In this document: positions 6,067 to 57,241 of the stretch, in pieces | How positions within the stretch are numbered: position 1 is the stretch's first letter | How the letters are laid out: each line of letters opens with the position of its first letter | DNA from: Squalus acanthias | Lineage: Eukaryota | Direction: 5' to 3' | Length of the DNA stretch: 64,000 bases | Assembly (NCBI GenBank): GCA_030390025.1 | Contig: CM059432.1 | Coordinates: 32,118,001-32,182,000 of the forward strand | Made by a program: the position numbers and the translations under genes | The notes under the pieces: model-generated | Database searches by the model: none | Told to the model about the DNA's origin: nothing | Seen by the model: only the letters and a program-made list of their open reading frames with translations

Positions 6067-8209
6067 CTACTTGTGTGTCATCTTTCTCTTCCGCGTGCTT
6101 CTATGAGGTGCTACCCCTGTGGATTCAGCAGAGGTAGAGGCAGCCTGCTCATTTCGCTGCTGCGACTGCTTAGACACTCTTGGCGGACGTCCTCTGGGTT
6201 TTGGAGCCTCTGGTGGCCCCACCAAAGTCTGCTCCTCCTGCGACTGTGCAGGGGCAGACTCGGCTATCTCTGTCCGAGGAGGCTTCTGGGGCTCTGACTG
6301 AGGGGGTGGCAACGGGGGAGAAGTGTAAGCGCTTTGAGAGGAGCCCACACTTCCATATCTATCAGCCTCTGCCATGTATTCTCCATCGATAGCATATGCT
6401 CATGTGAGTGGCACATCAGCTGCTCCATGCAGGTGGCCATCCCTTCAATGGAAGAGCCTACTGTCACCATCGCCTGCAACATGGTGGAGCTCATGTTGGA
6501 GATGGACTCCTCCATTCCCTGAACATTTGCAGACATCGCGCTCGCAAAACCTGTCACAGCCTCCTTCACTTCTTCCTGCATCTCTAGGATCGCCCTCTTT
6601 CTGGATGGCCCCCGAGGCTCAGCGTTTGCATGCAGCTGAGCAGAGCTAGGAGCATCTTGCGCCCTCCGGCGAGGACTCGCCACTGCTGTCTCTGTCTCCA
6701 CCATCTGCTCTTGCTCACTTGTGAGTTGTGAGACACCAGGTGACAACACTACTCTATGTCACATGGCACCCACCCAGGTGTGCGTATCTGCGCTGGTGCT
6801 GGGTCCGCTTATGTCTGGTGACGGTGCGCCCTCAGAGGCTGGAGGCTCTCCTGAGGAGTCGTCTTCCTCTTGGTCCTGTACAGTGGGGGTGTGTGGCGGG
6901 GGGGTGGGGGGGTGTGCGGGGGCCGCCTGGTGGACCTGTGGGAGAATAAAGAGATGAGTTTGATATGTCATATGAAGAATGGGTACGGATACCATTAATA
7001 TAAATTGCTTGATATGTAATTCTGTCACCAGGTTGCTGAGATGTCCCCCTCTCTCTGTCTCCCACCTCCAGCTGCTCGGCAAATCCCAATACTTCTAACA
7101 CAGCCTCCTCTTCTGTTGTGAGGGTGGCAAATGATGGTGTTCCACCTCCAGTTCTGTCCCTCTCCCTCTTATTGTGGGCTCTCTTTTCCTGCAAGGGGGG
7201 AAAGAAGAGGAGAGTGAGTGAGAGTGACGGAATGAGTGTAACAAATGGATGGGCTAGATCTTTAGAGGGAGACTATGATGGAGTGGGGTGTCAATGCCAA
7301 ATGGCCTCCTTGTGTGATGTTAGTTGGTATGATTGCACTAGGATGAGGCTGAGTGTGAGGGGTGGTTAGTCAGATGGGAATGTGATAATGTAGATAGCGA
7401 GAGAGGGATGGGTGGATGTGCAAGGTATGTTGCTGTGAGTAATGATGTACAGGAGTAGGGTTGGGAAGGCAGAGTGATGGGGATGTGATGACAGGCAGAG
7501 CAGGATGAAGTTGAGTGTGGTTTTGTACTCACATAGAAACATAGAAACATAGAATCTAGGAGCAGGAGTAGGCCATTCGGCCCGTCGAGCCTGCTCCGCC
7601 ATTCAATACGATCATGGCTGATCATCCAAATCCAGTACCCTGTCCCTGCTTTAATCCCCACAGTACACATATCCCACCCTACCCCCGTAACCCCACGTAT
7701 TTAATTCCCCCTAACATATCCCATCCTATCCCCATAACCCCACATATTTAATCCCCCCTAACACTAAGGGTCAATTTTATCATAGCCAAATCAACCTAAC
7801 CCACACATTTTTGGACTGTGGGAGGAAACCGGAGCACCCGGAGGAAACCCACGCAGACACGGGGAGAATGTGCAAACTCCACACAGACAGTCACCCGAGG
7901 TCAGATTCGAACCCGGGTCTCTGGCGCTGTGAGGCACCAGTGCTAACCACTATGCCACCGTGTTGCCACCTTTCCTGATCTAATGAGATCATTGAAACAT
8001 TTCTGGCATTGCACCCAGGCCCTCCTGACCACATCCCTGCTGTTGACCTCCTCTGCAATTTGGAGCCAGGCTGTTTTTGTCTCCTGGGGAGGTCCCTTCT
8101 GCCCATCAGAGGGGAAGAGGACCTCCCTGTATGCTCTGACTCCCTCCACAAGCATATGGAAGGAGTCATCGGAGAACCTGGGTCCTGCTCTCTGCCTCTG
8201 TGCAGTCAT
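6067..8209 (-). pseudogene. Harbinger Myb/SANT-like DNA-binding protein gene, 3 exons (8209-7970, 7188-7029, 6935-6067)
   Basis: PRFSD..LVEGV..REVLFP..W.QIAEEVN..R.WVQCQKCFNDL|EKRAHNKRERDRTGGG matches the Myb/SANT-like (MSANTD/trihelix) pattern, with GT-AG introns. Exon 3 has a frameshift in the poly-C tract (~6900), an in-frame TGA (6761-6759) and a second frameshift (~6370). Confidence 0.85.
7533..7967 (-). mobile_element. HE1-like V-SINE (tRNA head, V domain, CR1/HER1 tail)
   Basis: A box tggcatagtggt, B box ggttcgaatc, core tgtgtggagtttgcacattctccccgtgtctgcgtggg, (TTCTATGT)n tail. Near-identical to 48147-48572. Confidence 0.9.
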
Positions 8210-11734: not shown

Positions 11735-13765
11735 TCCCACCACTGCCACTCCGCCATTGCCCTTGTCGCTGCCTGTCATCCAGCCAGCCCAGACTGCTGA
11801 GATGGTGCAGTCTACAGCCAGGCCTTCCAGGCCCAGAGCTGGTTGAGGGCGTCCTGCAAGGCCATCTGAAGTCTCCCTCACGGACACTCAGCAGCCTTTC
11901 ATCAGCCCTGCTGCAGCCATTGGGCCAACACTTCGTAGCAACACTAGAGTAGGCAAAGGCACAATAACTAGAGGCACTAAGGGATTGTACAAGGGTGAAC
12001 AGTTAATATTTTTGTTGTAAATATGTGTTCACAGCTTTATGCTGTGACAGGGATGGAATGATGGGGATGTTGTGAGCAACGGGGATCTGGAGTTTAATTC
12101 ATTCGAACCGCAGTCTGATGAGGCGGTTATGGACCGCCCTTCTGGAAGGCTGATTGAGTGGATGCCTCCTCCCTCGCTCCTGTTCCTCCTCCTCCTTGTC
12201 CTCCTCCTCTCCCACTTCCTCCTCCTGAGGTGGTCCCGCAATCCCTGGTGGCAAGGGCTGGACCCTCATGATGGCTAAGTTGTGGAGCATGCAGCAGACC
12301 ACCAGAAAATGGGGCACCCGCTCAGCCGAGTACCGGAGGGCTCCTCCTGAGTGGTTAAGGCAGTGGACCGTTGCTTGAGCACTCCGATGGTCTGCTCGAT
12401 GATGTTCCTGATGGCAGCATAGCTCTCCTTATGTGAGTGCTGGGCAGGAGTGTTGGGGTTATGGAGAGGAGTCATGAGCCAGGTGGAGAGCGGATAGCTC
12501 TTGTCTCTGAGCAGCCAGCCGTGAGCTTGATGTGGTGGCTGGAAGAGTGCTAGCACACCGGTCTGGCGCAGGATGAAGGCATCGTGGCTGCTACCAGGAT
12601 AGCGGGCATTGACATTGAAGATTAGCTGTCTGTGGTCGCACACCAACTGCACATTAAGTGAGTGGTAGCCTTTGCGGTTACGGAAAATCTCAGGATTGTT
12701 ATCCAATGCCCGCAAAGCCACGTGGGTGCAATCAATGGCGCCCTGCACCATGGGGAATCCCGCTATCCTGGAAAAGCTGCATGCATGCTCGTCCTGCTTC
12801 TGGTGATGGGGAAGGAAATATAATCCCTTCTCCTACTGTAGAGAGCCTCTGTGGCCTCCCGGATGCAGCGATGGATGGCGAACTGGAGATGTTAGCTATG
12901 TCTCCTGTTGCAGACTGGAAGGATCCGCTGGCGAAAAAATTGAGGGCGACGGTGACCTTGACTGCCACTGGAGGAGCCATGGCTGCCTTGATCTGAGGCT
13001 GGAGGTCTAGTGCAGGAGGTGGCAGAGTTCTGTGACCACCTCCTTGGTGAAGCGGAGCCTTCTAATACACTGCTCCTCGCTTAATTGGAGTTAGGAGAAG
13101 TGCTCTCGGAATACCCTCAGGGGGTAAGGCTTCCTGTTGAGAGCCCTGATGGCCCTCCTCCTCCCTCTGGGCACATGTTCCAGTCTTTCTCGCTGCCTCC
13201 GCTCCCTCCGCTGTAAATCCTGGAGGGCGAGGTTGACTGCTAGTACAGCCCCCATTAATGTAACCAAGTGTAGCAGTTTGATTTTTTAAAGAATAAATGT
13301 AGCTACTTTTTAGTTGCCACAACACTCCTGATACTAAATAACCTTGAAATTATGGAATGAGACTGTTGAACTATGTGAACCTGACAAGAAAGCACTGAAA
13401 CTCCACTAACCTACAGCTGTGACTCATTACTGATGATCCCTTTAAATAACGTCCCTGGAGCTGGCTTCCTGCTGCTTCATGCCAGCTCTCACTGTTGCTG
13501 TTTCCTCCAGGCGCTAAGGTAAGTGCGACAATCAATTTTGCAGATCAGGCGGCCAGTGAGCGTTGCACACTCACTGACGTCACGATCCACCTGGCTTTGA
13601 GGCTCCCGGCGATACCTGTTCATGGCGGCACTGCGGGGAGAGGGGGGAGGCAGGTGTTGGTGTGCGCCGTTGGATTCGCCTCACCCCGGCAATACTGCTC
13701 TAGTGCCCTGTTAGCGCCATCTGCTGGCGTTAATAGGAGGCACTAAGGTCCTGAATTTTTCGCCC
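11735..13765 (-). mobile_element. Decayed, formerly autonomous PIF/Harbinger element, truncated on the Myb side
   Basis: Terminus GGGCGAAAAATTCAG on - strand from 13765. Transposase on - strand. Convergent Myb-gene C-terminus on + strand (~11740-12000: GRPARPS..TLRSNTRVGKG). Confidence 0.88.
12099..13255 (-). pseudogene. HARBI1-like Harbinger DDE transposase, disrupted by stops and frameshifts
   Basis: MGAV..RLRFTKEVVTELCHLL; VAVKVTVALNFFASGSFQ; VQGAIDCTHV; NRKGYHSLNVQLVCD; YPGSSHDAFIL; WLLRDKSYPL; IIEQTIGVLKQR; CCMLHNLAI, spread over several frames. Confidence 0.93.
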
Positions 13766-17460: not shown

Positions 17461-20076
17461 ATATTTATAAAAACCGTAACAAATTACTACTGAATCAGCA
17501 AATGGCAAACAGGAATAAAGCCAGCATTAACTTGCAATAAAGCAAGAAGGCAAACCAATCAAATCACTCAAAAAAATGTTAAAAATCTTTTTGCCTGCCA
17601 TCTTGGGTTCGGCACTATTCTGAAGACATACGACAGCAAATAAAATTGTAATATAATAAAGAAATAAAAAATGACCAGATTTATAAGAAAATTGATTTAA
17701 ATTCACCAGAATGCCTATATGTAGCAATTTCTATGTTTGAACTGCCTGTAACAGTATTTTCCATTGGAAAGCCTTTACCTCCATAACAAGCCTCAGCCTG
17801 CAGTTCATGGGGCTCCCAGAGCCACCATTCTTAGCTGAGAGATGTGCCAATTTGTAGGATGTGTCTGTCTGAGAATTTTTTTATATTTGAATAATTAAAA
17901 GACTATGGCAATTCACAGAGCATGCCAGGACTTGTTGTTTGCAAGCCTGCCCTCTCCTGCACTGATCTTTATCAAAGGAAAGTTACTGCAGATAAAACTG
18001 CCCAGAGAATTCATTATTAGAAACAGTAACGCCAATTTGAATTAATTTTGAATGCAAAGCAAAACCGTGCTATGGTATGAACTGTTCAGCTTTTTCTGAG
18101 GTAATCTTGATAGTGAAACCAGTGTCTACTATACACTAGCTGATCTGCTGCAAATACATTCAGCAAGTTTGGTAAGTAAGCTCAATGCAAATGCAGCTGA
18201 GAGGTAAACTAGCAAGTCAGGCAGGAGTAGGTCTTTATATTTTATAATACATTCTAAATGGTTACAGCATCCATCTTTATTTTATTTATATTTACATTGA
18301 GAACTTGAAAACGATCACTGTTCATATCTACAGTAGCATGTTCTGAAAGGACTCTAACATTTTTCAAGTTCGGAAGGAGGCTCTGAATAAAAGTTCTAAT
18401 TTAAACATGTATATTTCAGTAGACTACTTTGGTGACACTGTTGCAGAGATATTTGGTAAAGAAGGAAAGATGCAAATTACTTTAATATTTGTTTTCTCTG
18501 CATTCCCAAAGCCTTTCTATCACCCACAAGGCACAAGTCAGGAGTATCTGTGTAAGCCTTGGTCTCTCTTTTGGTGGAAGGAATCCTGCTGAGAGCCCGC
18601 CACGCATATTGAATAACCTCCAGCCGAGGGCAACGGGTTGTGGTTGGGGCAGAGTCAGAGGGGTAGGCAGAAGTCCTGCTTCACTGCTACTCCACCCTGA
18701 AGAGGAGAATCCAACCCTAGGTATCGCACACTGTTCTGACACAAAGGCCTAGAAATTCGAGCGTGCTTGAATGGTGAAGCCTGAGGCGCACCCTATATTG
18801 GGCCTCAGGCCTCAGGATGATCGAGCCTGCGAGCTGCAGATAACTAATAAGCGTCCCAAGCCAGCTCACCAGCGATGTGGAATAGTGGCTGGCTGCAAGA
18901 CGGAAAGCAAAGAGTAGGGGTAAAAGGTAGCTATTCAGAGTGGCAGAAGGTGGAAAGTGGGGTCCCACAAGGATCAGTGCAGGGATCACTGTTGCTCACA
19001 ATTTAATTTAACGATTTAGACTTTGGAATCAAAAATACAATTTCTAAATTTGCGGATGACACCAAATTGGAGGGGGTTTGTCAATACTGAGGAGGACTGC
19101 AACAAATTACAAGAAGACATTAATAAACTTGCAGAATGGGCATATAATTGGCAAATGAATGTCAACACAGATAAGTGTGAGGGATTAAATTTAGATAAGA
19201 AAAATAAGGAGGTCACATATTACTTGGAAAATAAGAATCTAAATGGGGTAGAGGAGCAAAGGGATCTGGGAGTACAAATACACAAATCACTAAAAGTAGC
19301 GACACAGGTTAATAAGGTCATAAAAAAGCAAACCAAACATTAGGGTTTATTTCTAGAGGGATAGAATCGTAAAGTAGAGAGGTTATGCTAAACCTATATT
19401 GAACTTTGGCGTATTGTGTACAATTCTGGTCACCATATTATAAAAAGGATATAGAGGCACTGGAGAGGGTGCAAAAAAGATTTACAAGGATGATACCAGA
19501 AATGCGAGGGTATACCTATCAGGAAAGGATAAACAGGTTGGGGGGGGGGGACGAAATTCGGTTGATTTGTGCCTCCCATTAGCACCCTAAGAGGGCGCTA
19601 ACAGGGCACAAAGCAACTAGCGCCCAGGCGCGGCGCTGCTAACGCCTCCCACGAAATTCAGTGGAAGGTTATCAGCAGCGGTAACCGTTAGCGCCCCACA
19701 GTACAGCGCCTCCGACGATGATGTCATCGGTGTGCGCAGCGCCCCGCTCGCGCCCCAGCTGCAATCTTCGGTAGCGCACCCTGACTTACCACCGGACACT
19801 ATGTCCGACAGGGTAAGGGGGGCCTACCTGCAGCTGGGGCGGCGCAAATTAAAGGGTAGGTGCCGGGTGGCCATTTTTGTTGCTGGCCGCCTGCCAGCAC
19901 ATGCCCCCGTTGCTGTCCCCGGCCTCCTGTAAAGCCCCCCCCGGCGGGGTGCCGGCTGCGCTACATGAGCCCGGCATTCCTCTTGAGTGCCGGCCTCTTT
20001 TGCCGGCTCTCCAATCCCTGGTGGCTCAGCTGGGCCCCGGGTCTAGGCCCCTCCCCTATAATAGGGGAGGAAGGCC

Positions 20077-22271
20077 TGAAGGGATAATTACTAGTCCTAG
20101 CACTTTTCAGGCTACCCCGGATCAGGCGTATTCCCCAGACGTTCACCTTCAACTAAAGTTAGAGATAGCCGAATCCTATAAGACGCTTAATTGGGTCTAA
20201 AGGTCCAGACTATCTCTCCCTAAAGGAAAGGAATGACTTGAAGATGTTACCGTCCTCCTCATAGCACTTTTAATAAGTTTAACTAGACTGTAACCTTCCG
20301 GATATTATGAGGGTCCAGAAAACTCCCCCAGAATTCTGCAACTCCTCACCAAAGAGTGTACAGAGATTGAGTTTGCGAGTTTGATACAGAAGTACTGTGT
20401 GAGACAATTCTAAAAATATATAGATTTATTAAAGAACCGACATGTAGTTAACAGTTGGTGATTCAATCGCAACTTTAACAGTTCTAAAAACAAATAGCTT
20501 ACAATTCTTATTCTCTGAGATCCTTATTCTCAAATCTTAACTTTGTTACATTTTTACCTTTCTACTTATTCTTAATCCAGAATATCCACCAAAATCAAAT
20601 ACCTTTGATTACCCGAGACTCAAAAGAGTTGAAAACTTACAGAGCTTGCCTCTGAAGTTGAGAATCGCTTGCCCCTTCCAGCGAATTCTGACTTCCTATC
20701 TGAAAGCTCTATATTTTATACCCTTTCTCAGTGGTATATTCTTTGAAGTTTTCTGCAGATGTAAGCTAATTATCTCTAGTCATATTTCTGTTGACTTCTT
20801 TCTATTCTTACTTTCAATTCAGCTGCTGCATGCAGAATTATGTCTGCAGTGTAGGTGTTCAAAACTTGTCATAAAAAATGGTTATAACAGATGTATCTAC
20901 TTGATGCCATTTTTACGAAGGTCTTCTATTGAATTCTTAAATCACCTCAGCTGGTTGTAAGCCAGACTTCGGGTCTCCTAACTGTTCCAAGTTCAATACA
21001 AAAACCATGTGATTGCTTGGTGCATCTATTGATGTCATATTTATGAAGTCATATGTTTCTATCTTTTACAACATGTAAATTTAAACCCATTTCAACCGAG
21101 TACATGATTGTCTTCCTAGCTACTTCAATTGGTTGTACCAAGAATTATGTCTCCTGTCTTTCATTTGATGTCATATTTATGAAGGCATATGGTTCTTTAA
21201 TGTTCTGTGTTTCTGTTTGAAGTGTTAGGGGGAAAAATTCAGCTGCTTGCGCCTCCCGTTAGCGCCTTAAGAGGGCGCTAATGGGGCGTAAAGCAGCTAA
21301 CGCCCGGGCGCAGCGCCGCCCACGCCTCCCGAAAAATTTAGTGGGAGGTTAGCGGCGGCGGCAGCCGGTAGCGCCCTGTGGCGCTGCGCCGCCGGCGATG
21401 ACGTCATCGCCGTGCGCAGCACCCCGCTCGCGCCCCGGCCGTGATCTTCAGTCGCACCCCCTGATTTACCGCCAGACGCTATGTCCGACGGGTTCAGGGA
21501 GGCGTACGTGCGGCCGGGGCGGCGATATTTAAAGCGGAGGTGGCAGGCGGCCATTTTTGTTGCTGGCCGCCTGCCAGCACCTGTCCCCGGCCCCCGTGAA
21601 GTGCCGGCTGCGCTCCAAGAGCCCGGCACTTCTCTTGAGTGCCGGGCTCTTTTGCCGGCACTCCCGATCCCTGGGGGCCCAGCTGGGCCCCGGTTCGCGC
21701 TGCGCAGGGTCCCTCCCCTTTAAGAAGGGGAGGAAGGCCTGCAATACCGCGGCGCGACGTGCTGCAGCGCGTGGCGCTGTGGCACGTAGCGCCAGGATAT
21801 TCACTCGCAGCGCCCCAAGAGGGATGCGGGGTGCTTCCAGTTGCGCCCCGCTTCCCTCTTGGGGCGCAACCACTGAAGTTCCGGCGCGGGGCCGCTAATT
21901 TTTTCGGGGCGCTAAAAGTCGCGCCCCGGCGAGGTTAGCGCCCCAAATGGGGCGCGACTCAATTTTTACCCCTTAGTTTATAACACTTTAAGCTGGGTAT
22001 AACTATTGTGTTCTTTCCAAACTGCAGACTTCTTGGAAACTCCAACCCTTTGCTTCAATAGGGTCATTGTCTCAGTGTCAACAACCAATTCCCATTTCAA
22101 AGCTTGAATGGTGTTTACAGCTTTGTGACTCATCTTATCTCAGAAGCCTATATTTACAGCTTTGTGTCGTTGAGGTTTTTAGATTTTAAAATCCAGTTTG
22201 TCATATTTTAATAAGGCTAGAATTCTGTTCATAGGATGGTATATTTTTCTGAATATGGCTATTCCTTTACA
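20077..22271 (-). mobile_element. Solo LTR (~1.45 kb after removing the nested MITE) of an ERV or Gypsy-type element
   Basis: TG...CA ends with imperfect terminal IR and 4-bp TSD GGCC (20073-20076 / 22272-22275). On - strand: TATAAAA 20720-20714, GTAAGT 20640-20635, AATAAA 20430-20425. Confidence 0.82.
21228..21972. mobile_element. Young CpG-rich Harbinger MITE
   Basis: TIR GGGGGAAAAATTCAG / GGGGTAAAAATTGAG and TTA TSD (21225-21227 / 21973-21975). Confidence 0.93.
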
Positions 22272-23129
22272 GGCCTACAGTACCGCCGTGTGGCTTTACT
22301 CCCTCTTGGGGTGCTACCAGTGAATTTTGGGGGTGGGGTCGCTAACTCTGGGGCACTAAAAGTAGCGAAGTTAGCACCCCAGAGGGGACGCAACCCAATT
22401 TTGCCCCCCGTCTCTTTTCTCTTGAAAAGAGAAAGCTGAAGGGTGGCCTAATAGAGGTCTTTAAAATCATGAAAAGTTAGATACAGAGAGAGTGTTTCCA
22501 CTTGTGGGGAGGAGCAAAACTAGAGGCCATCATTAAAAGAAGATAGTCACAAAGAAATCAAATAGGGAATTCTGGAGAATTCACCCAAAGAGTGGTGAGA
22601 ATGTGGAGCTCGCTACCACAGGGAGTAGTTGAGGCGAATAGTATAGCTGCATTTAAGGGGAGGCTAGATAAGCATATGAGGGAGAAGGGAATAGAGGGTT
22701 ATGCTGATAGATTTAGATGAGGAAGGATGGGAAGTGGCACGACTGGAGCATAAACTCCGGCATGGATTGGTTGGACCGAATGGCCCGTTTCTGTGCCGTA
22801 TATTCTTCGTAATTCTATGTAATTCTGGGTTGCTGAAGCAATACGTTGTAATCAAACTGAACAAAGGTAAGGAGATCTAAAACAAGAAAGACTGCAGAGT
22901 GGAGCAATAAACACTCTTAAAAACAAACATACTGTCCACCGGAGAACCCCTGATATGCAATTTCTTAAACAGATTGTCTCAGTTCCTGTAGATGTCAGAT
23001 CTGATATGGAATACTGCCAAGGTTTGCAAACAGCTGCACAGGCACCCTGCCAAACAGTGGGAGCGTCACCCAAATAACATAACTCCTCCTCGTGACTGTC
23101 TCTGACACTTATTGCAATGGCAGAATCGT

Positions 23130-23802: not shown

Positions 23803-24455
23803 GGGGGAGACTTTCGGTTGGTTAGCGCCTCCCATTAGCGCCTGGGGAGGTGCTAATGGGGCGCCAAGGGGTTAGTGACCAGGTGCGGCGAATGCAGCGA
23901 CACCCGCGAACTTCAGTGCCGGTCTAACTCTTACCGCCTGGTTCTCTAGCACCTCACAGATCGTGACGTCATAAAGTGCGCAGTGGCCCGTTATCACCCC
24001 GGATGTGAAATTGCCTCCCGCTCCCTGCTGTATCGCCGGGCGTGAACAACAGCAGGATGAGGAGGTGTTGTCAACTCAGCTGGCCGCTTGGGGAGCGCTA
24101 ATTAAAGGGAATGGTTTTCAGGTAGGCCAACCTTTATTATTTGCACCAGTCTGGTGCCTGCTCAAAGTTTTTGATGTTTCATTGCTGCAAGATGTCCAAG
24201 CCCTCCATTTTGTGAGAGTGTTTGGGGCTGTAATGGCTGTCGCACAGGTCGCCTTGCAATGCAGAACTGCCGACAAGTAGGTTGTGCACCATCATTGGCC
24301 CTTCCCTTTAAGCGAGGGAAGCAGCCTCTGATGCCGTTAGCAATGCGCTCCAAATTGTTCAGCGCTCTGCCGCTACCACCCCGCTCTCGGACTTTAGCGA
24401 TCCTAAGAGAAGTGGTTAGGGCTTGATTTAGCGCTCCACTTCCCTCTTCTAGCCC
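23803..24455. mobile_element. Truncated Harbinger MITE related to 46365-47107 (opposite orientation)
   Basis: tta|gggggagactttcggttggttagcgcctcccattagcgcc start. gatttagcgctccac motif matches the reverse complement of sequence at ~46487-46500. Confidence 0.75.
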
Positions 24456-32700: not shown

Positions 32701-33418
32701 AGGAGGTGAGACACTTGCCACAGAATACCCAGCCTCTGACCTGCTCTTGTTGCCACAGTATTTATGTGGCTGGTCCAGTTAAGTTTCTGATCAATGGTGA
32801 CCCCCCCCCAGGATGTTGATGGTGGGGGATTCGGCGATGGTAATGCTGTTGAATGTCAAGGGGAGGTGGTTAGACTCTCACTTGTTGGAGATAGTCATTG
32901 CCTGGCACTTGTGTGGCACGAATGTTACTTGCCACTTATCAGCCCAAGCCTGAACATCGTCCAGGTCTTGCTGCATGCGGGCATGGACTGCTTCATTATC
33001 TGAGGAGTTGCGCATGGAACTGAACACTGTGCAATCATCAGCGAACAACCCCAGTGCTAACCTTATGATGGAGGAAAGGTCATTGATGAAGCAGCTGAAG
33101 TTGGTTGGGCCTAGGACACTGCCCTGAGGAACTCCTGCAGCAATGTCCTGGGGCTGAGATGATTGACCTTCAACAACCATAACCATCTTCCTTTGTGCGA
33201 GGTATGACTCCAGCCAGTGGAGAGTTTTCCCCCTGATTCCCATTGACTTCAGTTTTACTAGCGCTCCTTGATGCCACACATGGTCAAATGCTGCCTTGAT
33301 GTCAAGGGCAGTCACTCTCACCTCACCTCTGGAATTCAGCTCTTTTGTCCATGCTTGGACCAAGGCTGTAATGAGGTCTGGAGCCGAGTGGTCCTGGTGG
33401 AACTCAAACTGAGCATCA

Positions 33419-35086
33419 GTGAGCAAGACTGTCACTGACCTCATCTCCTCTGGAGATCTTCCCCCCACGGCCGCCAACCTCATAGTTCCCCAACCCCGCA
33501 CAGCCCGCTTCTACCTCCTTCCCAAGATCCACAAACAGGACTGCCCCGGTAGACCCATCGTTTCAGCCTGTTCTTGCCCCACGGAACTTATCTCTTCCTA
33601 TCTCGACTCTATTTTTTCTCCCCTTGTCCAGTCTCTTCCCACCTACATCCGCGACTCTTCCGATGCCCTCCGCCATTTTAACAGTTTCCAGTTTCCCGGC
33701 CCCAACCGTCTCCTCTTCACTATGGACGTACAATCCCTCTACACCTCCATTCCCCACCAGGATGGCCTGAGGGCGCTCCGCTTCTTCCTTGAACAGAGGC
33801 CCAACCAGTCCCCATCCACCACCACCCTCCTCCGCCTGGCTGAACTTGTTCTCACATTGAACAACTTCTCCTTTGACTCTACCCATTTCCTCCAAATTAA
33901 AGGTGTTGCTATGGGTACCCACATGGGTCCTAGCTATGCCTGCCTTTTCGTGGGATATGTGGAACACTCTTTGTTCCAGTCCTACTCGGGTCCCCTCCCT
34001 CACCTCTTTTTCCGGTACATTGATGACTGTATCGGTGCCGTCTCCTGCTCTCGCCCTGAACTAGAACATTTCATTCACTATGCTTCCAATTTCCACCCTT
34101 CCCTCACCTTCACATGGTCCATCTCCGACTCTTCCCTTCCCTTCCTCGACTTCTCCATCTCCATCTCTGGGGATAGGTTATTGACTAACATTCACTACAA
34201 GCCCACCGACTCCCACAGCTACCTGGACTACACTTCCTCCCACCCCGCCTCCTGTAAGGACTCTATTCCATTCTCCCAGTTTCTCCATCTCCGCCGCATC
34301 TGCTCTGATGATGCCACCTTCCATACCAGTGCTTCCGACATGTCTTCCTTTTTCCTCAACCGAGGATTCCCCTCTACCGTGGTCGACACGGCCCTCGACC
34401 GTGTCCGTTCTATCTCCCGCACATCTGCCCTCACCCCTGCCCCTCCCTCCCGGAACCACGATAGGGTTCCCCTTGTCCTCACCTTTCACCCCACCAGCCT
34501 CCACATTCAACGGATCATCCTCCGCCATTTCCGCCACCTCCAGCGTGATCCCACCACCAAACACATCTTCCCCTCACCTCCCCTTTCAGCATTCCGCAGG
34601 GACCGCTCCCTCCGCGACACCCTAGTCCACTCCTCTACCACCCCCAGCACCCCTTCCCCTTCGCCCGGCACCTTCCCGTGCACGCGCAGGAGATGCAACA
34701 CATGCCCTTATACCTCCCCTCTTCCCACTGTCCAGGGCCCCAAACACCCCTTCCAGGTGAAACAGCGATTTACTTGTACTTCCTGCAATTTAGTATACTG
34801 TATTCGCTGCTCACGATGTGGACTCCTCTACATTGGGGAGACCAAACGCAGATTGGGTGACCGCTTTGCGGAACACCTCCGTTCAGTCCGTAAGGGGGAC
34901 CCCGAGCTCCCGGTGGCCTGTCACTTTAATTCACCGCTTCACTCCCACTCTGACCTCACCGTCCTCGGCCTATTACACTGTTCCACGGAAGCTCAGCGTA
35001 AGCTCGAGGAACAGCACCTCATCTTTCGTTTAGGCACGCTACAGCCCTCTGGACTCAATATCGAGTTCAACAATTTTAGATCATAA
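33419..35086 (+). CDS. Penelope reverse transcriptase + GIY-YIG endonuclease; uninterrupted 555-codon frame lacking its native start
   Basis: FYLLPKIHK, GRPIVS, MDVQSLYTSI, GVAMG, FRYIDD, YKPTD; Cys-rich linker CTRRRCNTC; NLVYCIRC..CGLLYIGET..RFAEH..GLN. Confidence 0.95.
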   Translation: MSKTVTDLISSGDLPPTAANLIVPQPRTARFYLLPKIHKQDCPGRPIVSACSCPTELISSYLDSIFSPLVQSLPTYIRDSSDALRHFNSFQFPGPNRLLFTMDVQSLYTSIPHQDGLRALRFFLEQRPNQSPSTTTLLRLAELVLTLNNFSFDSTHFLQIKGVAMGTHMGPSYACLFVGYVEHSLFQSYSGPLPHLFFRYIDDCIGAVSCSRPELEHFIHYASNFHPSLTFTWSISDSSLPFLDFSISISGDRLLTNIHYKPTDSHSYLDYTSSHPASCKDSIPFSQFLHLRRICSDDATFHTSASDMSSFFLNRGFPSTVVDTALDRVRSISRTSALTPAPPSRNHDRVPLVLTFHPTSLHIQRIILRHFRHLQRDPTTKHIFPSPPLSAFRRDRSLRDTLVHSSTTPSTPSPSPGTFPCTRRRCNTCPYTSPLPTVQGPKHPFQVKQRFTCTSCNLVYCIRCSRCGLLYIGETKRRLGDRFAEHLRSVRKGDPELPVACHFNSPLHSHSDLTVLGLLHCSTEAQRKLEEQHLIFRLGTLQPSGLNIEFNNFRS

Positions 35087-37204: not shown

Positions 37205-37482
37205 AAAAATTGTATTTATATAGCGCCTTTAACATAGAAAAGCGTCCCAAGGCACTTCACAGTAGCGTAATCAGACAAAAATGGACACTGAGCCAAAAAA
37301 GGAGATATTAAGGAAGAGTGATTGAAAGCTTGGTCAAAGAGGTGGATATTTAGGAGGGTCTTAAAGAAAGAGAGAGAGAGGTGGGGCAGTATAGAGAGGG
37401 AATTCCAGAGCATGGGGCTTAGGTGGTTGAAGGCACTGCCTCAGATGGTATGGCGTAGAGACGGGAGGATGCAGAAGAAGTC
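37205..37482 (-). mobile_element. L2-type LINE 3' end
   Basis: aaagcttggtcaaagaggtgg and tatttatatagcgcc motifs, shared with 57465-57970. Confidence 0.75.
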
Positions 37483-39188
37483 AGATTAAAGCTCTGCAGT
37501 CCTGCCACATCCAGTCATGAATGGTGGTGGACAATTAAACAACTAACGGGAGGAGTAGGCTCCATGAATATCCCCATCCTCAATGACGATGGAACCCTGC
37601 ATGTGAGTGCAAAAGACAAGGCTGAATCATTCACAACCATCTTCAGCCAGAAGTTCCAAGTGGATGATTCATCTCCACCTCCTCCTGAGGTCCTCAACAT
37701 CACAGAAGCCAGTCTTCAACCAATTCGATTCACTCCACGTGATATCAAGAAACGGCTGAGCGCACTGGATACAGCAAAAGCTATGGGCCCCGACAACATC
37801 CCGGCAGTCGTGCTGAAGACTTGTGCTGCATAACTAGCCGCGCCTCTAGCCAAGCTGTTCCAGTACAGCTACAACACTGGCATGTACCTGACATTGTGGA
37901 AAATTGCCCAGGTATGTCCTGTCCACAAAAAGCAGGACAAATCCAATCCAGTCAATTACCACCCCATCAGTCTACTCTCAATCATCAGCAAAGTGATGGA
38001 AGGTGTCATCGACAGTGCTATCAAGCGGTGAGGTGAGAGTGCCTGCTCTTGACATCAAGGCAGCATTTGACCGAGTGTGGCATCAAGGAGCCCGAGTAAA
38101 ATGTAAGTCAATGGGAATCAGGGGGAAACCTCTCCATTGGCTGGAGTCATATCTATCACAAAGGAAGATGGTTGTCGTTGTTGGAGGCCAATCATCTCAT
38201 CTCCAGGACATCGCTGCAGGAGTTTCTCAGGGCAGTGTCCTAGGCCTAACCATCTTCAGCTGCTTCATCATTGACCTTCCCTCCATCAGAAGGTCAGAAG
38301 TGGGGATGTTCGCTGATGATTTCACAGTGTTCAGTTCCATTCACAACTCCTCAGATAATAAAACAGTCTGTGGCGGCATGCAGCAAGACCTGGATGACAT
38401 TCAGGCTTGGGCTGAGAAGTGGTAAGTAACATTCGTGCCACACAAGTGCCAGGCAATGACCATCTCCAACAAGAGTGAGTCTAACCACTGCCCCTTGACA
38501 TTCAACAGCATTACCATTGCCGAATCCCCCACCATATCCTGGGGGTCACCAATGATCAGAAACGTACCTGGACCAGCCACATAAATACTGTGGCTACAAG
38601 AGCAGGTCAGAGGCTGGGTATTCTGCAGTGAGTGTCTCACCTCCTGACTCCCCAAAGCCTTTCCACCATCTACAAGGCACAAGTCAGGAGTGTGATGGAC
38701 TAATCTCCACTTGCCTGGATGAGTGCAGCTCCAACATCACTCAACAAAGCTCGACACCATCCAGGACAAAGCCACCACCTTAAACATTCACTCCCTCCAC
38801 CACAGATGCAACGTGGCTCCAGTGTATACCATCTACAAGATGCACTGCAGCAACTCGCCAAGGCTTCTTTGACAGCACCTCCCAAAGGCGCGACCTCTAC
38901 CACCTAGAAGGACAAGGACAGCAGGCGCATGGGAACACCACCACCTCCAAGTTCCCCACCAAGTCACACACCATCCTGACTTGGAAATATTTCACCGATC
39001 CTTCATCGTCGCTGGGTCAAAGTCCTGGAACTCCCTCTCTAACAGCACTGTGGGAGTACCTTCACCACACGGACTGCAGCGATTCAAGAAGGCGGCTTAC
39101 CACCACCTTCTCAAGGGCAATTAGGGATGGGGAATTAATGCTGGCCTTGTCAGCGACGCCCACATCCCATGGATGAATTAAAAAAAAG
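37483..39188 (+). mobile_element. 5'-truncated CR1/L2-group LINE, same family as 32232-36118, with an internal deletion near 38027
   Basis: Same ORF2 motifs, but SAIKR is joined directly to GEVRV. Intact 3' UTR with A-rich tail. Confidence 0.92.
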
Positions 39189-46221: not shown

Positions 46222-47286
46222 ATACAGGAGTCTAGAACTAGGGGGCATAGTCTGAGGATAAGGGGTCGGCCATTTAAGACCGAGATGAGGAGGAATTTCT
46301 TTACTCAGAGGGTTGTGAATCTTTGGAATTCACTGCCCCAGAGGGCTGTGGATGCTGAGTCTTTGGGGGAAAAATTAGGTCGCGCCCCGTTTGGGGCGCA
46401 AATATCGTCTGGACGCAAATATTAGCGCCTGGCGCTAATTATCGCCACTGACTGGAAACTTCACTTTTACCGCCCCGGGAGGTGAGTGGAGCGCTAAATC
46501 AGGCGCTGCACACCTGTCTTAAGGCGCAAAGGCCGAGCAGTGAGGCGCTAACTCAGCGCGCGAGCGCAGCGCAGCTGCTGCCAGTTAGCGAGGGAACACA
46601 GACACACTGGCGCCGGCCAGTTCTTAAAGCGGGGGGGGGGGCAAACTGTTAGGATCAGTAGGCAAAACTACCTCACAAAGCGTTGAGTCAATGCAGAAGT
46701 CTCTCTTTCTCTCTCTCCGAATCTCTCTCTCTCTCTCAGAACGAGTGGTGCAAAAATGTCAACCACAGAAAAAGACAGGAAGAGGCCCCCTTTAAATAGC
46801 GCCCCCCCCAGCCCCACAGCGATTGATGGCGTTCCAGTCTTCCGGTCGTTGGATACGCCAGGCGGTAAGGCAGGGGGCGCCACTCAATTTCCGCTCCGGG
46901 GCGCCACAAGGGCGTTGCACCATGGAATGACGTCACAATCTGCGCGCGCAGGTGGTCGCAGCGGTAAAGTTTAGCGCCGCCGCACAATGTCTAGTTAAGT
47001 TCCGGAGCGGCGCAAACATCGCTGCGCCCGGGCGTTAGCGGCTTTGCGCCCCATTAGCGCCCTCTTAAGGCGCTAATGGGAGGCGCAACCAACTGAATTT
47101 TTACCCCTTTGAGTATATTCAAGGCTGAGATGGATAGATTTTTGGACTTTAGTGAAATCAAGGGATATGGGGATCGGGCGGGAAAGTGGAGATGAGGTCG
47201 AAGATCAGCCATGATCTTATTGAATGGCTGAGCAGGCTCGAGGGGCCGAATGGCCTACTCCTGTTCCTAATTCTTATGTTCTTATG
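46222..47286 (+). mobile_element. Young CR1/HER1 3' fragment, split by a MITE
   Basis: gatgctgagtcttt|gagtatattcaaggctgag is restored on removing the insert. (TTCTTATG)n tail. Confidence 0.88.
46365..47107. mobile_element. Young CpG-rich Harbinger MITE
   Basis: TIR GGGGGAAAAATT / GGGGTAAAAATT and 3-bp TSD TTT (46362-46364 / 47108-47110). Confidence 0.92.
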
Positions 47287-48146: not shown

Positions 48147-48572
48147 GGGCAACACGGTGGCATAGTGGTTAGCACTGGTGCCTCACAGCGCCAGGGACCC
48201 GGGTTTGAATCTGACCTCGGGTAACTGTCTGTGTGGAGTTTGCACATTCTCCCCGTGTCTGCGTGGGTTTGCTCCGGTTTCCTCCCACAGTCCAAAAATG
48301 TGCGGGTTAGGTTGATTTGGCTATGATAAATTGACCCTTAGTGTTAGGGGGGGATTAAATATGTGGGGTTATGGGGATAGGATGGGATATGTTAGGGGAA
48401 ATTAAATACGTGGGGTTACGGGGGTAGGGTGGGATATGTGTACTGTGGGGATTAAAGCAGGAACAGGGTACTGGACTTGGATGATCAGCCATGATCGTAT
48501 TGAATGGTGGAGCAGGCTCGACGGGCCGAATGGCCTACTCCTGCTCCTAGATTCTATGTTTCTATGTTTCTA
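48147..48572 (+). mobile_element. HE1-like V-SINE
   Basis: Near-identical to 7533-7967 in the opposite orientation. Confidence 0.9.
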
Positions 48573-48678
48573 AAAGAAAAAAATGAAGATGGCTCCCTCT
48601 CCTAGCATGTTTGGTAAATACAGCGGCAATGTGATACTGAGCTAATCTGACTGGGAAGGCCCCAAGTTCAGAGTCCTA

Positions 48679-49389
48679 GGGCTAAAAATTGAGTAGCACC
48701 CCATTTGGGGCGCTAACTTAGCCGGGGCACCCCTGAAAAATTAGCGTCCCCGCGCCGGAAATTGATTGGTTGCGCCCCAAGAGGGAAGCGGGGTGCTACT
48801 GGAAGCGCCCCGCATCCCTCTTGGGGCGCTGCAAGTCAGTATTGCGGCGCTATGTGCCGCGGTATTGCAGGCCTTCTTCCCCTTCTTAAAGGGGAGGGGC
48901 CTTGCGCAGCACGACCCGGGGCCCAGCTGTGCCCCCGGGGATCGGTAATGCTGGCTAAAGAGCCCGGCACTCAAGAGGAGTACCAGGCTCTTGGAGCGCA
49001 GCCGGCACTCCGCGAGGGGGGCCGTTTAGGAGGCCAGGGACGGGAGCGCAGGCAGGTGCTGGCAGGTGGCCAGCAACCAAAATAGCCATCCCGCACCTCG
49101 CCTTTAAATAGCGCCTCCCCGGCCGCAGGTAGGCTCCCCTGATCCCGTCGGACATAGCGTTCGGTGGTAAGTCAGGGGGCATTCCCGAAGATCGCGAGCG
49201 GGGTGCTGCGCATGGCGATGATGTCATCGGCGGTGGCGCAGCACCGTGGGGCGCTACCAGTTAGCACCGCCGCTAACCTCCCGCTGAATTTCGCGGGAGG
49301 CGCCTCACCTGGGCGCCAGTTGCTTTGCGCCCCGTCAGCGCCCTCTTATGGCGCTAACAGGAGGCGCAAAGCAACCCAATTTTTCCCCC
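48679..49389. mobile_element. CpG-rich Harbinger MITE, reverse orientation of 21228-21972
   Basis: TIR GGGCTAAAAATTG / GGGGGAAAAATTG and CTA TSD (48676-48678 / 49390-49392). Confidence 0.92.
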
Positions 49390-49936
49390 CTAGTCTATGC
49401 TGTCAGCTGGAGTGACAATAGACAATTGGGCCCATGAGGAGACAGGAAACTGAGTCTATGGTCAACGACGAATGGAGATGAGGTGTCACTGAGGAGGGTT
49501 GGCCTGCATTGTCTAAGACTGGAACACTAGTAATCTAAAAGGAAAAATTTGCAGGGTTATGGGTAAAGAGCAGGAGAGTGGGACTAATTGGATAGCTCTG
49601 TCAAAGAGCCAGCACAGGCAGGATGGGTTGAATAGCCTCTTTCTGTGCTGTAAGATTTTATGATCAAAAGGGAGTTCGTCAGTAACCAGAGGACACAGAT
49701 TTAAGATAATTGGCAAAAGAACCAGAGGGGCGATGAGGAGAATTTTTTTTTTACGCAGCGAGTTGTTGTGATCTGGAATGCACAGCCTGAAAGGGCGGTG
49801 GAAGCGGATTCAGTAATAACTTTCAAAAGGGAATTGGATAATTACTTGAAATGAAGAAATTTGCAGAGCAGGGGGAGTGGGACTCATTGGATAGCTCTTT
49901 CAAAGAGTCGGCACACAACCGGGCATTATGGGCTGA

Positions 49937-53576: not shown

Positions 53577-54270
53577 TGATGCGGAGATGCCGGTGTTGGA
53601 CTGGGGTGGACAAAAGTGAGAAGTCGCACAACACCAGGTTATAGTCCAACAGTTTTATTTGAAATCACAAGCTTTTGGAGCGGCTGCTCCTTCGTCAGGT
53701 GAAGTGAAGGAATACAAATCGACAAAGCATATATAGACAGAGAACAATGCAATGTCTTAGAGACACACGACAACGCAAAATCATCGAGCAGAAACTGATA
53801 GCCAAGTTCCGCACTCATGAGGACGGCCTCAACCGGGATCTTGGGTTCATGTCACGGTACATGACGTAGAGTCATCCAGACTCGAGTCGTCGTTGGCTTG
53901 TTCAGATGTGATTTCCAGTAAAAATAAGTAAAAATTTTAAAGTTTATCGTTTTCCATACCGACTGCAGCTTTTGACACATTAGACCCCCTGTAACCCCAC
54001 CTCATTGTCTCAGTTGTATCTTGCTATGTCTTTGATGTGGTGCCTTCCTGTCTGACCTGATTGTTTATCTGCCGAGGTGTGACAAAAGGCAGTCAGGAGG
54101 ATTGAATGTAGTCGTCTGCCATTGTCCGTTACACATGCATTGTTCTCTATCTATATATGCTTTGTCGATTTGTATTCCTTTACTTCACCTGACGAAGGAG
54201 CAGCCGCTCCAAAAGCTTGTGATTTCAAATAAAACTGTTGGACTATAACCTGGTGTTGTGCGACTTCTCA
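53577..54270. mobile_element. Penelope family-2 insertion with inverted pseudo-LTR arms
   Basis: 12-bp TSD CCCTAGAAACTA (53565-53576 / 54271-54282), arms 53617-53751 and 54136-54270, and GIY-YIG C-terminus RDTRQRKIIEQKLIAKFRTHEDGLNRDLGF. Confidence 0.9.
54185..54222 (+). ncRNA. Hammerhead motif with G12>A substitution (mirror copy on - strand at 53665-53702)
   Basis: TCAC-CTGACGA-a-GGAGC-agcc-GCTCC-AAAA-G-CTT-GTGA. Confidence 0.7.
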
Positions 54271-54291
54271 CCCTAGAAACTAGACTGAGCC

Positions 54292-56499: not shown

Positions 56500-56538
56500 T
56501 TACAAGCTTTCGGAGCTATCGCCCCCTTCGTCAGGTAA
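56500..56538 (-). ncRNA. Minimal hammerhead ribozyme (left arm)
   Basis: TTAC-CTGACGA-agGGGGC-gata-GCTCC-GAAA-G-CTT-GTAA with intact core. Confidence 0.78.
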
Positions 56539-57203
56539 AGTTACAATGAGTGAATCTACAAGAGTTCACAGAATATAAACACAGAAACTGCAGAGATACA
56601 ATCTTTCAGGGAAGGTGTCCTTACATCAAAGACACACCAAGAGCACAGCCAAGACAATGAGATGTGTCCCAGGGGGTCCAACGTGTCAAATCCTGCTGTC
56701 TGCAGTGTTTTTTTTGGGGGGTTTGTTTTTTGGGTTTGTTTTTTAAAAACTGGAAAGACAGACAACGATGTCAAGTCACGTTCTGTAGCATGACATGAAC
56801 CCGATATCCCTATTGAGGCCATCCTCATGAGTGCGGAACTTGGCCAAGGCGGCCTTCGAGACACACGACAACGCAAAATCATCGAGCAGAAACTGATAGC
56901 CAAGTTCCGCACTCATGAGGATGGCCTCAATAGGGATATCGGGTTCATGTCACGCTACAGAACGTGACTTGACATCATTGTCTGTCTTTCCAGTTTTTAA
57001 AAAACAAACCCAAAAAACAAACCGGAAAAAAAAACACTGCAGACAGCAGGATTTGACATGTTGGACCCCCTGGGACACATCTCATTGTCTTGGCTGTGCT
57101 CTTGGTGTGTCTTTGATGTAAGGACACCTTCCCTGAAAGATTGTATCTCTGCAGTTTCTGTGTTTATATTCTGTGAACTCTTGTAGATTCACTCATTGTA
57201 ACT

Positions 57204-57241
57204 TTACCTGACGAAGGGGCAATAGCTCTGAAAGCTTGTAA
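57204..57241 (+). ncRNA. Minimal hammerhead ribozyme (right arm)
   Basis: TTAC-CTGACGA-aGGGGC-aata-GCTCT-GAAA-G-CTT-GTAA with intact core. Confidence 0.78.

Follow-up and report, generated by a model that had tools for sequence, protein, structure and literature searches.

What kind of element left the isolated long terminal repeat (LTR) in this 64-kb window of shark DNA (the window being the whole stretch analyzed), and does its layout point to a foamy-like endogenous retrovirus (ERV)?

A solo LTR nested among copies of one MITE family

The element and the repeats around it are laid out as follows.

20077..22271, minus strand: solo LTR with TG..CA ends, its own 1,447 nt interrupted by a nested insertion of 748 nt
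20073..20076, no strand: target-site duplication GGCC, left copy (a single GGCC in two sister MITE copies)
22272..22275, no strand: target-site duplication GGCC, right copy (same sister-copy evidence)
19546..20076, no strand: left portion of the host MITE, sharing 76-78% identity with sister copies
22272..22408 (end approximate), no strand: host MITE, right part, from comparison with sister copies
21228..21972, no strand: younger GC-rich, presumably Harbinger-type MITE inside U3, with the TTA duplication at 21225-21227 and 21973-21975

The TG (20077-78) and CA (22270-71) termini are directly flanked by GGCC at 20073-76 and 22272-75. The host MITE has two sister copies within the window, the nested one and one at 48678-49390, and each carries a single GGCC at the corresponding site. 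Moreover, in the public sequencing run X10, three contigs pass from the left flank beyond 20078 into MITE sequence. The empty site is thus observed, both in the two sister MITEs and in the X10 contigs through the junction. The flanking letters also permit a duplication of 5 or 6 nt with ends other than TG..CA; the canonical reading, TG..CA with 4 nt, was adopted. The internal region is absent at the locus, the LTR is accompanied by no viral genes, and no second LTR copy was found within the 64-kb window. The element is a solo LTR, and of this we are virtually certain. The initial annotation had described an LTR of ~1.45 kb with TG..CA ends and a 4-bp target-site duplication, and all three hold: the 2195-nt span less the 748-nt insertion gives 1447 nt, GGCC lies on both sides, and empty sites exist in two sister MITEs.

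The nested MITE, younger than the host MITE, belongs to the same family, and its observed/expected CpG ratio is 1.03, compared with 0.73 in the left part of the host MITE. The Harbinger label is one that we presume from the TTA duplication and the G-run ends. In addition, a single X1 contig joins 21201 to 22006, which fits an LTR copy lacking the nested MITE. The host MITE thus came first, the LTR element second, and the nested MITE third: the parent element inserted into a GC-rich MITE with a 4-nt stagger, and another, younger member of that MITE family later entered its U3. LTR-LTR recombination would at some point have removed the internal region and left the solo LTR.

Further copies or ends of this MITE family lie in the window at 13695-13764, 23803-23918, 46365-46429, 47009-47106, and 48678-49390. 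The remnant of a DDE transposase of Harbinger type (Pfam DDE_Tnp_4, E 1.7e-25), together with nearby frames that are maybe its partner gene, occupies 12099-12832 and 6264-7272 on the minus strand; the remnant is a possible autonomous relative of the MITE. Other repeats were also seen. A 557-codon open frame at 33413-35086 (plus strand) has reverse transcriptase and GIY-YIG matches (Pfam), is Penelope-like, and is embedded in LINE fragments that recur in inverted orientation at 37481-39187 with 90-92% identity. The inverted repeats at 56523-57219 and 53616-54271, long and near-perfect (226 nt at 95%, 136 nt at 96%, and 136 nt at 99%), are probably young MITEs, and the inverted copies at 7534-7967 and 48148-48572, 97-98% identical and 40 kb apart, represent a young repeat.

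Promoter and RNA-processing motifs of the LTR

Read on the minus strand, the LTR contains the following features, listed from the U3 end to the U5 end.

21976..22271, minus strand: presumed upstream part of U3, A-rich on the sense strand, of low family depth
22114-22127 and 22153-22166, minus strand: two exact 14-nt direct repeats (100% identity), candidate enhancer repeats
20721..21227, minus strand: promoter-proximal part of U3, from family depth
21029-21060 and 21165-21196, minus strand: two 32-nt direct repeats, 94% identical
20714..20720, minus strand: TATA box TATAAAA, from motif position
20405..20690, minus strand: predicted R of ~285 nt, both ends predicted from the TATA and AATAAA positions
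20635..20640, minus strand: putative 5' splice site GTAAGT, 80 nt past the TATA box, with a weak exon side TCT
20425..20430, minus strand: poly(A) signal AATAAA, 210 nt past the donor and 354 nt from the LTR end, from motif position
20077..20404, minus strand: long U5 of ~330 nt, widely shared in the family, from family depth

U3 measures 803 nt to the TATA box. The U3-like direct repeats announced in the initial annotation were both located, and they exceed what shuffling yields: their longest exact cores of 20 and 14 nt were reached by 0/1000 and 1/1000 shuffles, respectively. The TATA box at 20720 and the AATAAA about 210 nt past the donor also lie where that annotation had placed them, and transcription is predicted to start near 20690. 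GTAAGT and AATAAA each occur only once across the two LTR pieces together, on the minus strand, and the plus strand contains none of TATAAAA, GTAAGT, and AATAAA. The "consensus donor GTAAGT" fared less well. The hexamer is indeed at 20640, but it follows the consensus on the intron side only, with TCT on the exon side. As TCT/GTAAGTTT, it scores 7/11 against the U1 consensus, which is below the 8/11 of a GTAAGA site in U3. In prototype foamy virus (PFV), the donor lies near +50.

To judge the layout, 5000 dinucleotide shuffles of 20077-21227 were scanned on both strands for the order TATA, donor, AATAAA. The strict layout, the spacing of which was picked post hoc after the data had been seen, appeared in 5/5000 shuffles, the loose layout in 160/5000, and the layout with wide spacing in 517/5000. 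The corresponding counts in actual 1151-nt tiles from elsewhere in the window were 0/52, 2/52, and 2/52. These numbers bear on the alternative that the element is a Gypsy (Metaviridae) solo LTR, autonomous or not, in which the donor-like hexamer would be a chance occurrence or the mark of an intron in the 5' UTR. TG..CA ends, TATA, and AATAAA are generic, and the loose layout arises in 160-517 of 5000 shuffles (3-10%), both of which suit a Gypsy origin, whereas the rarity of the strict layout does not. Fish Gypsy elements can make 4-nt duplications. A citable statement on the length of Gypsy duplications was not found in the literature consulted, including the available passages of PMC8672886 and PMC5753468. 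Furthermore, no LTR class is more common in zebrafish than Gypsy, which accounts for 830/968 elements bearing reverse transcriptase in the portion of that survey available (PMC8672886).

RNA folding of R/U5 was not exceptional relative to shuffles (z -1.4, -0.8, and -1.1). The PFV switch was not reproduced by folding; the donor was mostly paired in the form starting at +1 and somewhat more open when 13 nt of U3 were included. An Rfam search gave eight weak hits, none of them near a gathering score.

On the opposite strand, a stop-free frame of 139 codons at 20541-20960 (plus strand) runs across the TATA box and the start of R and is longer than those in 2977/3000 shuffles (23 reach it). It was not counted as a gene: it has no homologue, and it is interrupted by single-base indels in contigs of the family.

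Relatives in public sequencing runs

Part of 20077-21227 is present in 20 of the 21 listed runs, drawn from nine studies and carrying organism codes A-G, with one run unlabelled; the best run contains 0.56 of the words of this segment. The initial annotation had weighed a single-copy sequence against its reading; the sequence is instead multi-copy, occurring in other individuals or species. Four of the 21 runs (X1, X10, X16, and X21) were mapped onto 20020-22320 at 85% likeness in 30 bins. X16, X10, and X1 cover 30/30 bins, and X21 contributes only 14 partly fitting reads. Those X21 reads that touch the LTR lie almost solely at 20636-20866, around the TATA box and the start of R, and are too few to weigh.

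Summed depth over R/U5 relative to U3 is 15.9x in X1, 15.0x in X10, and 4.5x in X16, the sums being used only as ratios and not as copy numbers. Similarly, the TATA bin (20713-20789) reaches 13-14x the U3 depth in three runs. This pattern fits subfamilies with a common promoter core and R/U5 and differing U3 regions. Since the deep bins extend from the TATA box to 20077 and those upstream are shallow, the minus-strand orientation is supported independently of the motifs. It is very improbable, then, that the LTR is real with its orientation or R/U5 assignment wrong, or that the insertion is of another kind. The start and poly(A) sites are predicted, and a duplication of 5-6 nt is formally possible; against this, TATA, GTAAGT, and AATAAA occur on the minus strand only, and the depth runs as for a variable U3 joined to a shared R/U5.

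One bin departs from the deep region. In each of the three contig runs, bin 20636-20712, where the predicted start and the greater part of the donor lie, stands at 1.3-1.7x the U3 depth although both neighboring bins are deep, which counts against a functional donor; either most relatives do not share this bin at 85%, or it assembles poorly. Subfamilies may differ in this first stretch of R. Family depth also falls in the outermost bins. One 656-nt contig extends 515 nt past the U5 end, and no loose end at 22271 was found among the matches listed. None of the runs listed as containing the LTR is recorded as RNA; X16, which is RNA by guess only, showed no loose end at the donor among the six matches listed, a result of no weight either way.

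Comparison with known LTRs and the probable foamy-like assignment

Published LTRs were compared by eye from the available passages of the cited papers and supplements, with approximate positions and without alignment. In PFV, R is 193 nt long and contains the donor, with the poly(A) signal downstream of it at +168, a layout described in the source passages as unique among retroviruses; U1 binding at the R donor suppresses 5' polyadenylation (PMC3694450). The shark LTR resembles that of PFV in the candidate donor that precedes AATAAA inside the predicted R, in U3 length (777 nt in PFV and 803 nt to the TATA box here), and in the 4-nt duplication. It differs in its R of ~285 nt, its signal near +260, and its U5 of ~330 nt. 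Moreover, U3 showed no coding sequence resembling Bet. Its best frames are no more open than usual (p 0.12 and 0.22 for the best of three), neither of the two frames scanned matched Pfam (0/2), and no homologue was found for them. The protein P0003 (E 1.3e-9), the single representative hit, was rejected as a homologue of a U3 frame, since it is a protein of plectin repeats, and its score adds up matches of ~25 bits each to those repeats.

At 1,447 nt, the LTR falls inside the range of 950-1,700 nt given as typical of foamy LTRs, for which the source passages note one exception of 576 nt in stork (PMC6955096). Fish and newt foamy-like LTRs of 1,498, 1,634, and 960-974 nt are likewise flanked by 4-nt duplications (PMC5512871, PMC5210030). 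The duplication had been counted as a foamy trait in the initial annotation. It is present here as GGCC, but gammaretroviruses make 4-nt duplications too, as do the fish foamy-like elements, which also have mostly a Lys primer-binding site (PBS) and GGGTG at the PPT:LTR border (PMC5210030); the trait is thus not diagnostic. The PBS expectation, tRNA-Lys1,2, is not fixed either, with Lys, Asn, or Thr tRNAs used by published foamy-like elements of fishes and amphibians (PMC5512871, PMC5210030). The remaining foamy hallmarks, namely a Pol that groups with spumaretroviruses, a Gag lacking the Cys-His box, a pol frame of its own, accessory genes, and an internal promoter, belong to the internal region that is absent at this locus.

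By eye, ~225, 320, 485, and 455 nt follow AATAAA in four foamy-like LTRs, compared with 354 nt here and ~75 and 90 nt in two elephant-shark LTRs that are not foamy. In the coelacanth CoeEFV (PMC3386198), a TATA box is followed ~100 nt on by a donor, ~155 nt further by AATAAA, and after ~225 nt by the LTR end, as judged by eye; it differs from the shark LTR in its length of ~880 nt and its strong exon-side AG, and sequence likeness was not noticed by eye in the passage available. The newt NviFLERV-1 (PMC5512871) has the same order as here, with a donor-like site at ~396, AATAAA at ~638 (~240 nt on), the end at 960, and a long U5. The donor-like sites of the coelacanth and newt LTRs upstream of AATAAA are unmarked in the published supplement passages. 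The teleost AciFLERV and AliFLERV (PMC5512871) share the long LTRs, long U5, and 4-nt duplications; in contrast, they have no clear donor, by eye, between TATA and AATAAA in the passages available, and their donors lie in the leader after the PBS. These two LTRs, from a cichlid and a killifish, are the ones of 1,498 and 1,634 nt with ~485 and 455 nt after AATAAA (PMC5512871), and the cichlid reading is ambiguous because there are two TATA boxes.

Among elements of cartilaginous fishes, CmiERV lineages I (snakehead-like) and II (epsilon-like) of the elephant shark also have TG..CA LTRs (PMC4422223). In contrast to the 354 nt after AATAAA here, they have a short U5 (~75 and 90 nt), and their donor lies after the PBS; this reading is by eye from two examples. 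The existence of these lineages, together with the 4-nt duplications of gammaretroviruses, lends some plausibility to a solo LTR of another retrovirus lineage, whether epsilon-like, snakehead-retrovirus-like, or lokiretrovirus. However, the short distance from AATAAA to the end and the donor position in the two examples, as well as the length of only ~600 nt for the epsilon-like elephant-shark LTR, make such an origin improbable. No details of lokiretrovirus LTRs were found in the available part of PMC7947760. The catshark element ERV-Spuma.0-Sca (PMC10699275) is a shark element labelled spuma-like, as the present one may be, but its LTR is 866 nt, and its first ~590 nt, as far as given, look unlike the element here. 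Of three short motifs compared with the available supplements of PMC10699275, two had no match, and the third had one, inside a long internal-looking sequence. Available passages of PMC7947760, PMC10435555, PMC5753468, and PMC12789967 contain nothing decisive.

Exact-motif scans of viral contigs gave 0 matches. Such scans of metagenomes gave 0 and then one match, which was dismissed as chance because its 25 nt lie in a contig of bacterial origin with ordinary metabolic and ribosomal-protein genes. Neither these scans nor the matches listed for the mapped contigs linked internal sequence to the LTR.

In this by-eye set, the long U5 groups the element with 4/4 foamy-like LTRs and 0/2 others, and the candidate donor before AATAAA groups it with 2/4 foamy-like LTRs and 0/2 others. 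The geometry of a U3 of ~800 nt, a long R, and a U5 of ~330 nt matches the four foamy-like LTRs by eye, which speaks against a Gypsy origin within a comparison set made up of retroviral LTRs; we regard that origin as rather unlikely. We consider it reasonably probable that the solo LTR belongs to a foamy-like ERV family, the class being read from LTR features alone. Since a solo LTR carries no viral genes, the family is not provable from this copy. The initial annotation had suggested the trace of a possibly undescribed shark foamy-like ERV. Its foamy-like part agrees with the length, the long U5, and the order of donor and AATAAA, but "undescribed" applies at most to this one family, because CmiFLERV has already been published as a foamy-like ERV in cartilaginous fish (PMC5512871). 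The family itself may already be named.

In the parent provirus, transcription would start from ~20690, and cleavage would occur near 20405. By analogy with PFV, U1 snRNP on the donor ~50 nt into R would silence the 5' LTR's AATAAA, and use of the signal would fall to the 3' LTR. The present copy is probably inert. No host gene was recognized among the 22 window frames scanned with Pfam, and because no coding remnant was recognized in U3 either, no role is evident for this copy; the locus itself is an ordinary solo LTR among many.

It is possible, though doubtful, that the element belongs to a cartilaginous-fish foamy-like lineage that already has the donor-in-R, U1-dependent poly(A) switch of mammalian foamy viruses. 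No literature annotating R-region donors in non-mammalian foamy-like LTRs was found, and the main texts of PMC5512871, PMC5210030, and PMC7947760 do not contain the word "splice". If the switch does exist in this lineage, then, together with the coelacanth and newt LTRs, it would date to the early history of the foamy group, and two teleost lineages would have moved the donor behind the PBS. Should the family prove foamy-like and its donor be in use, the shark copies would show that the foamy-specific silencing of 5' polyadenylation is very old. A donor in R combined with a long U5 might then help to sort gene-less solo LTRs that are missed by protein-based scans.
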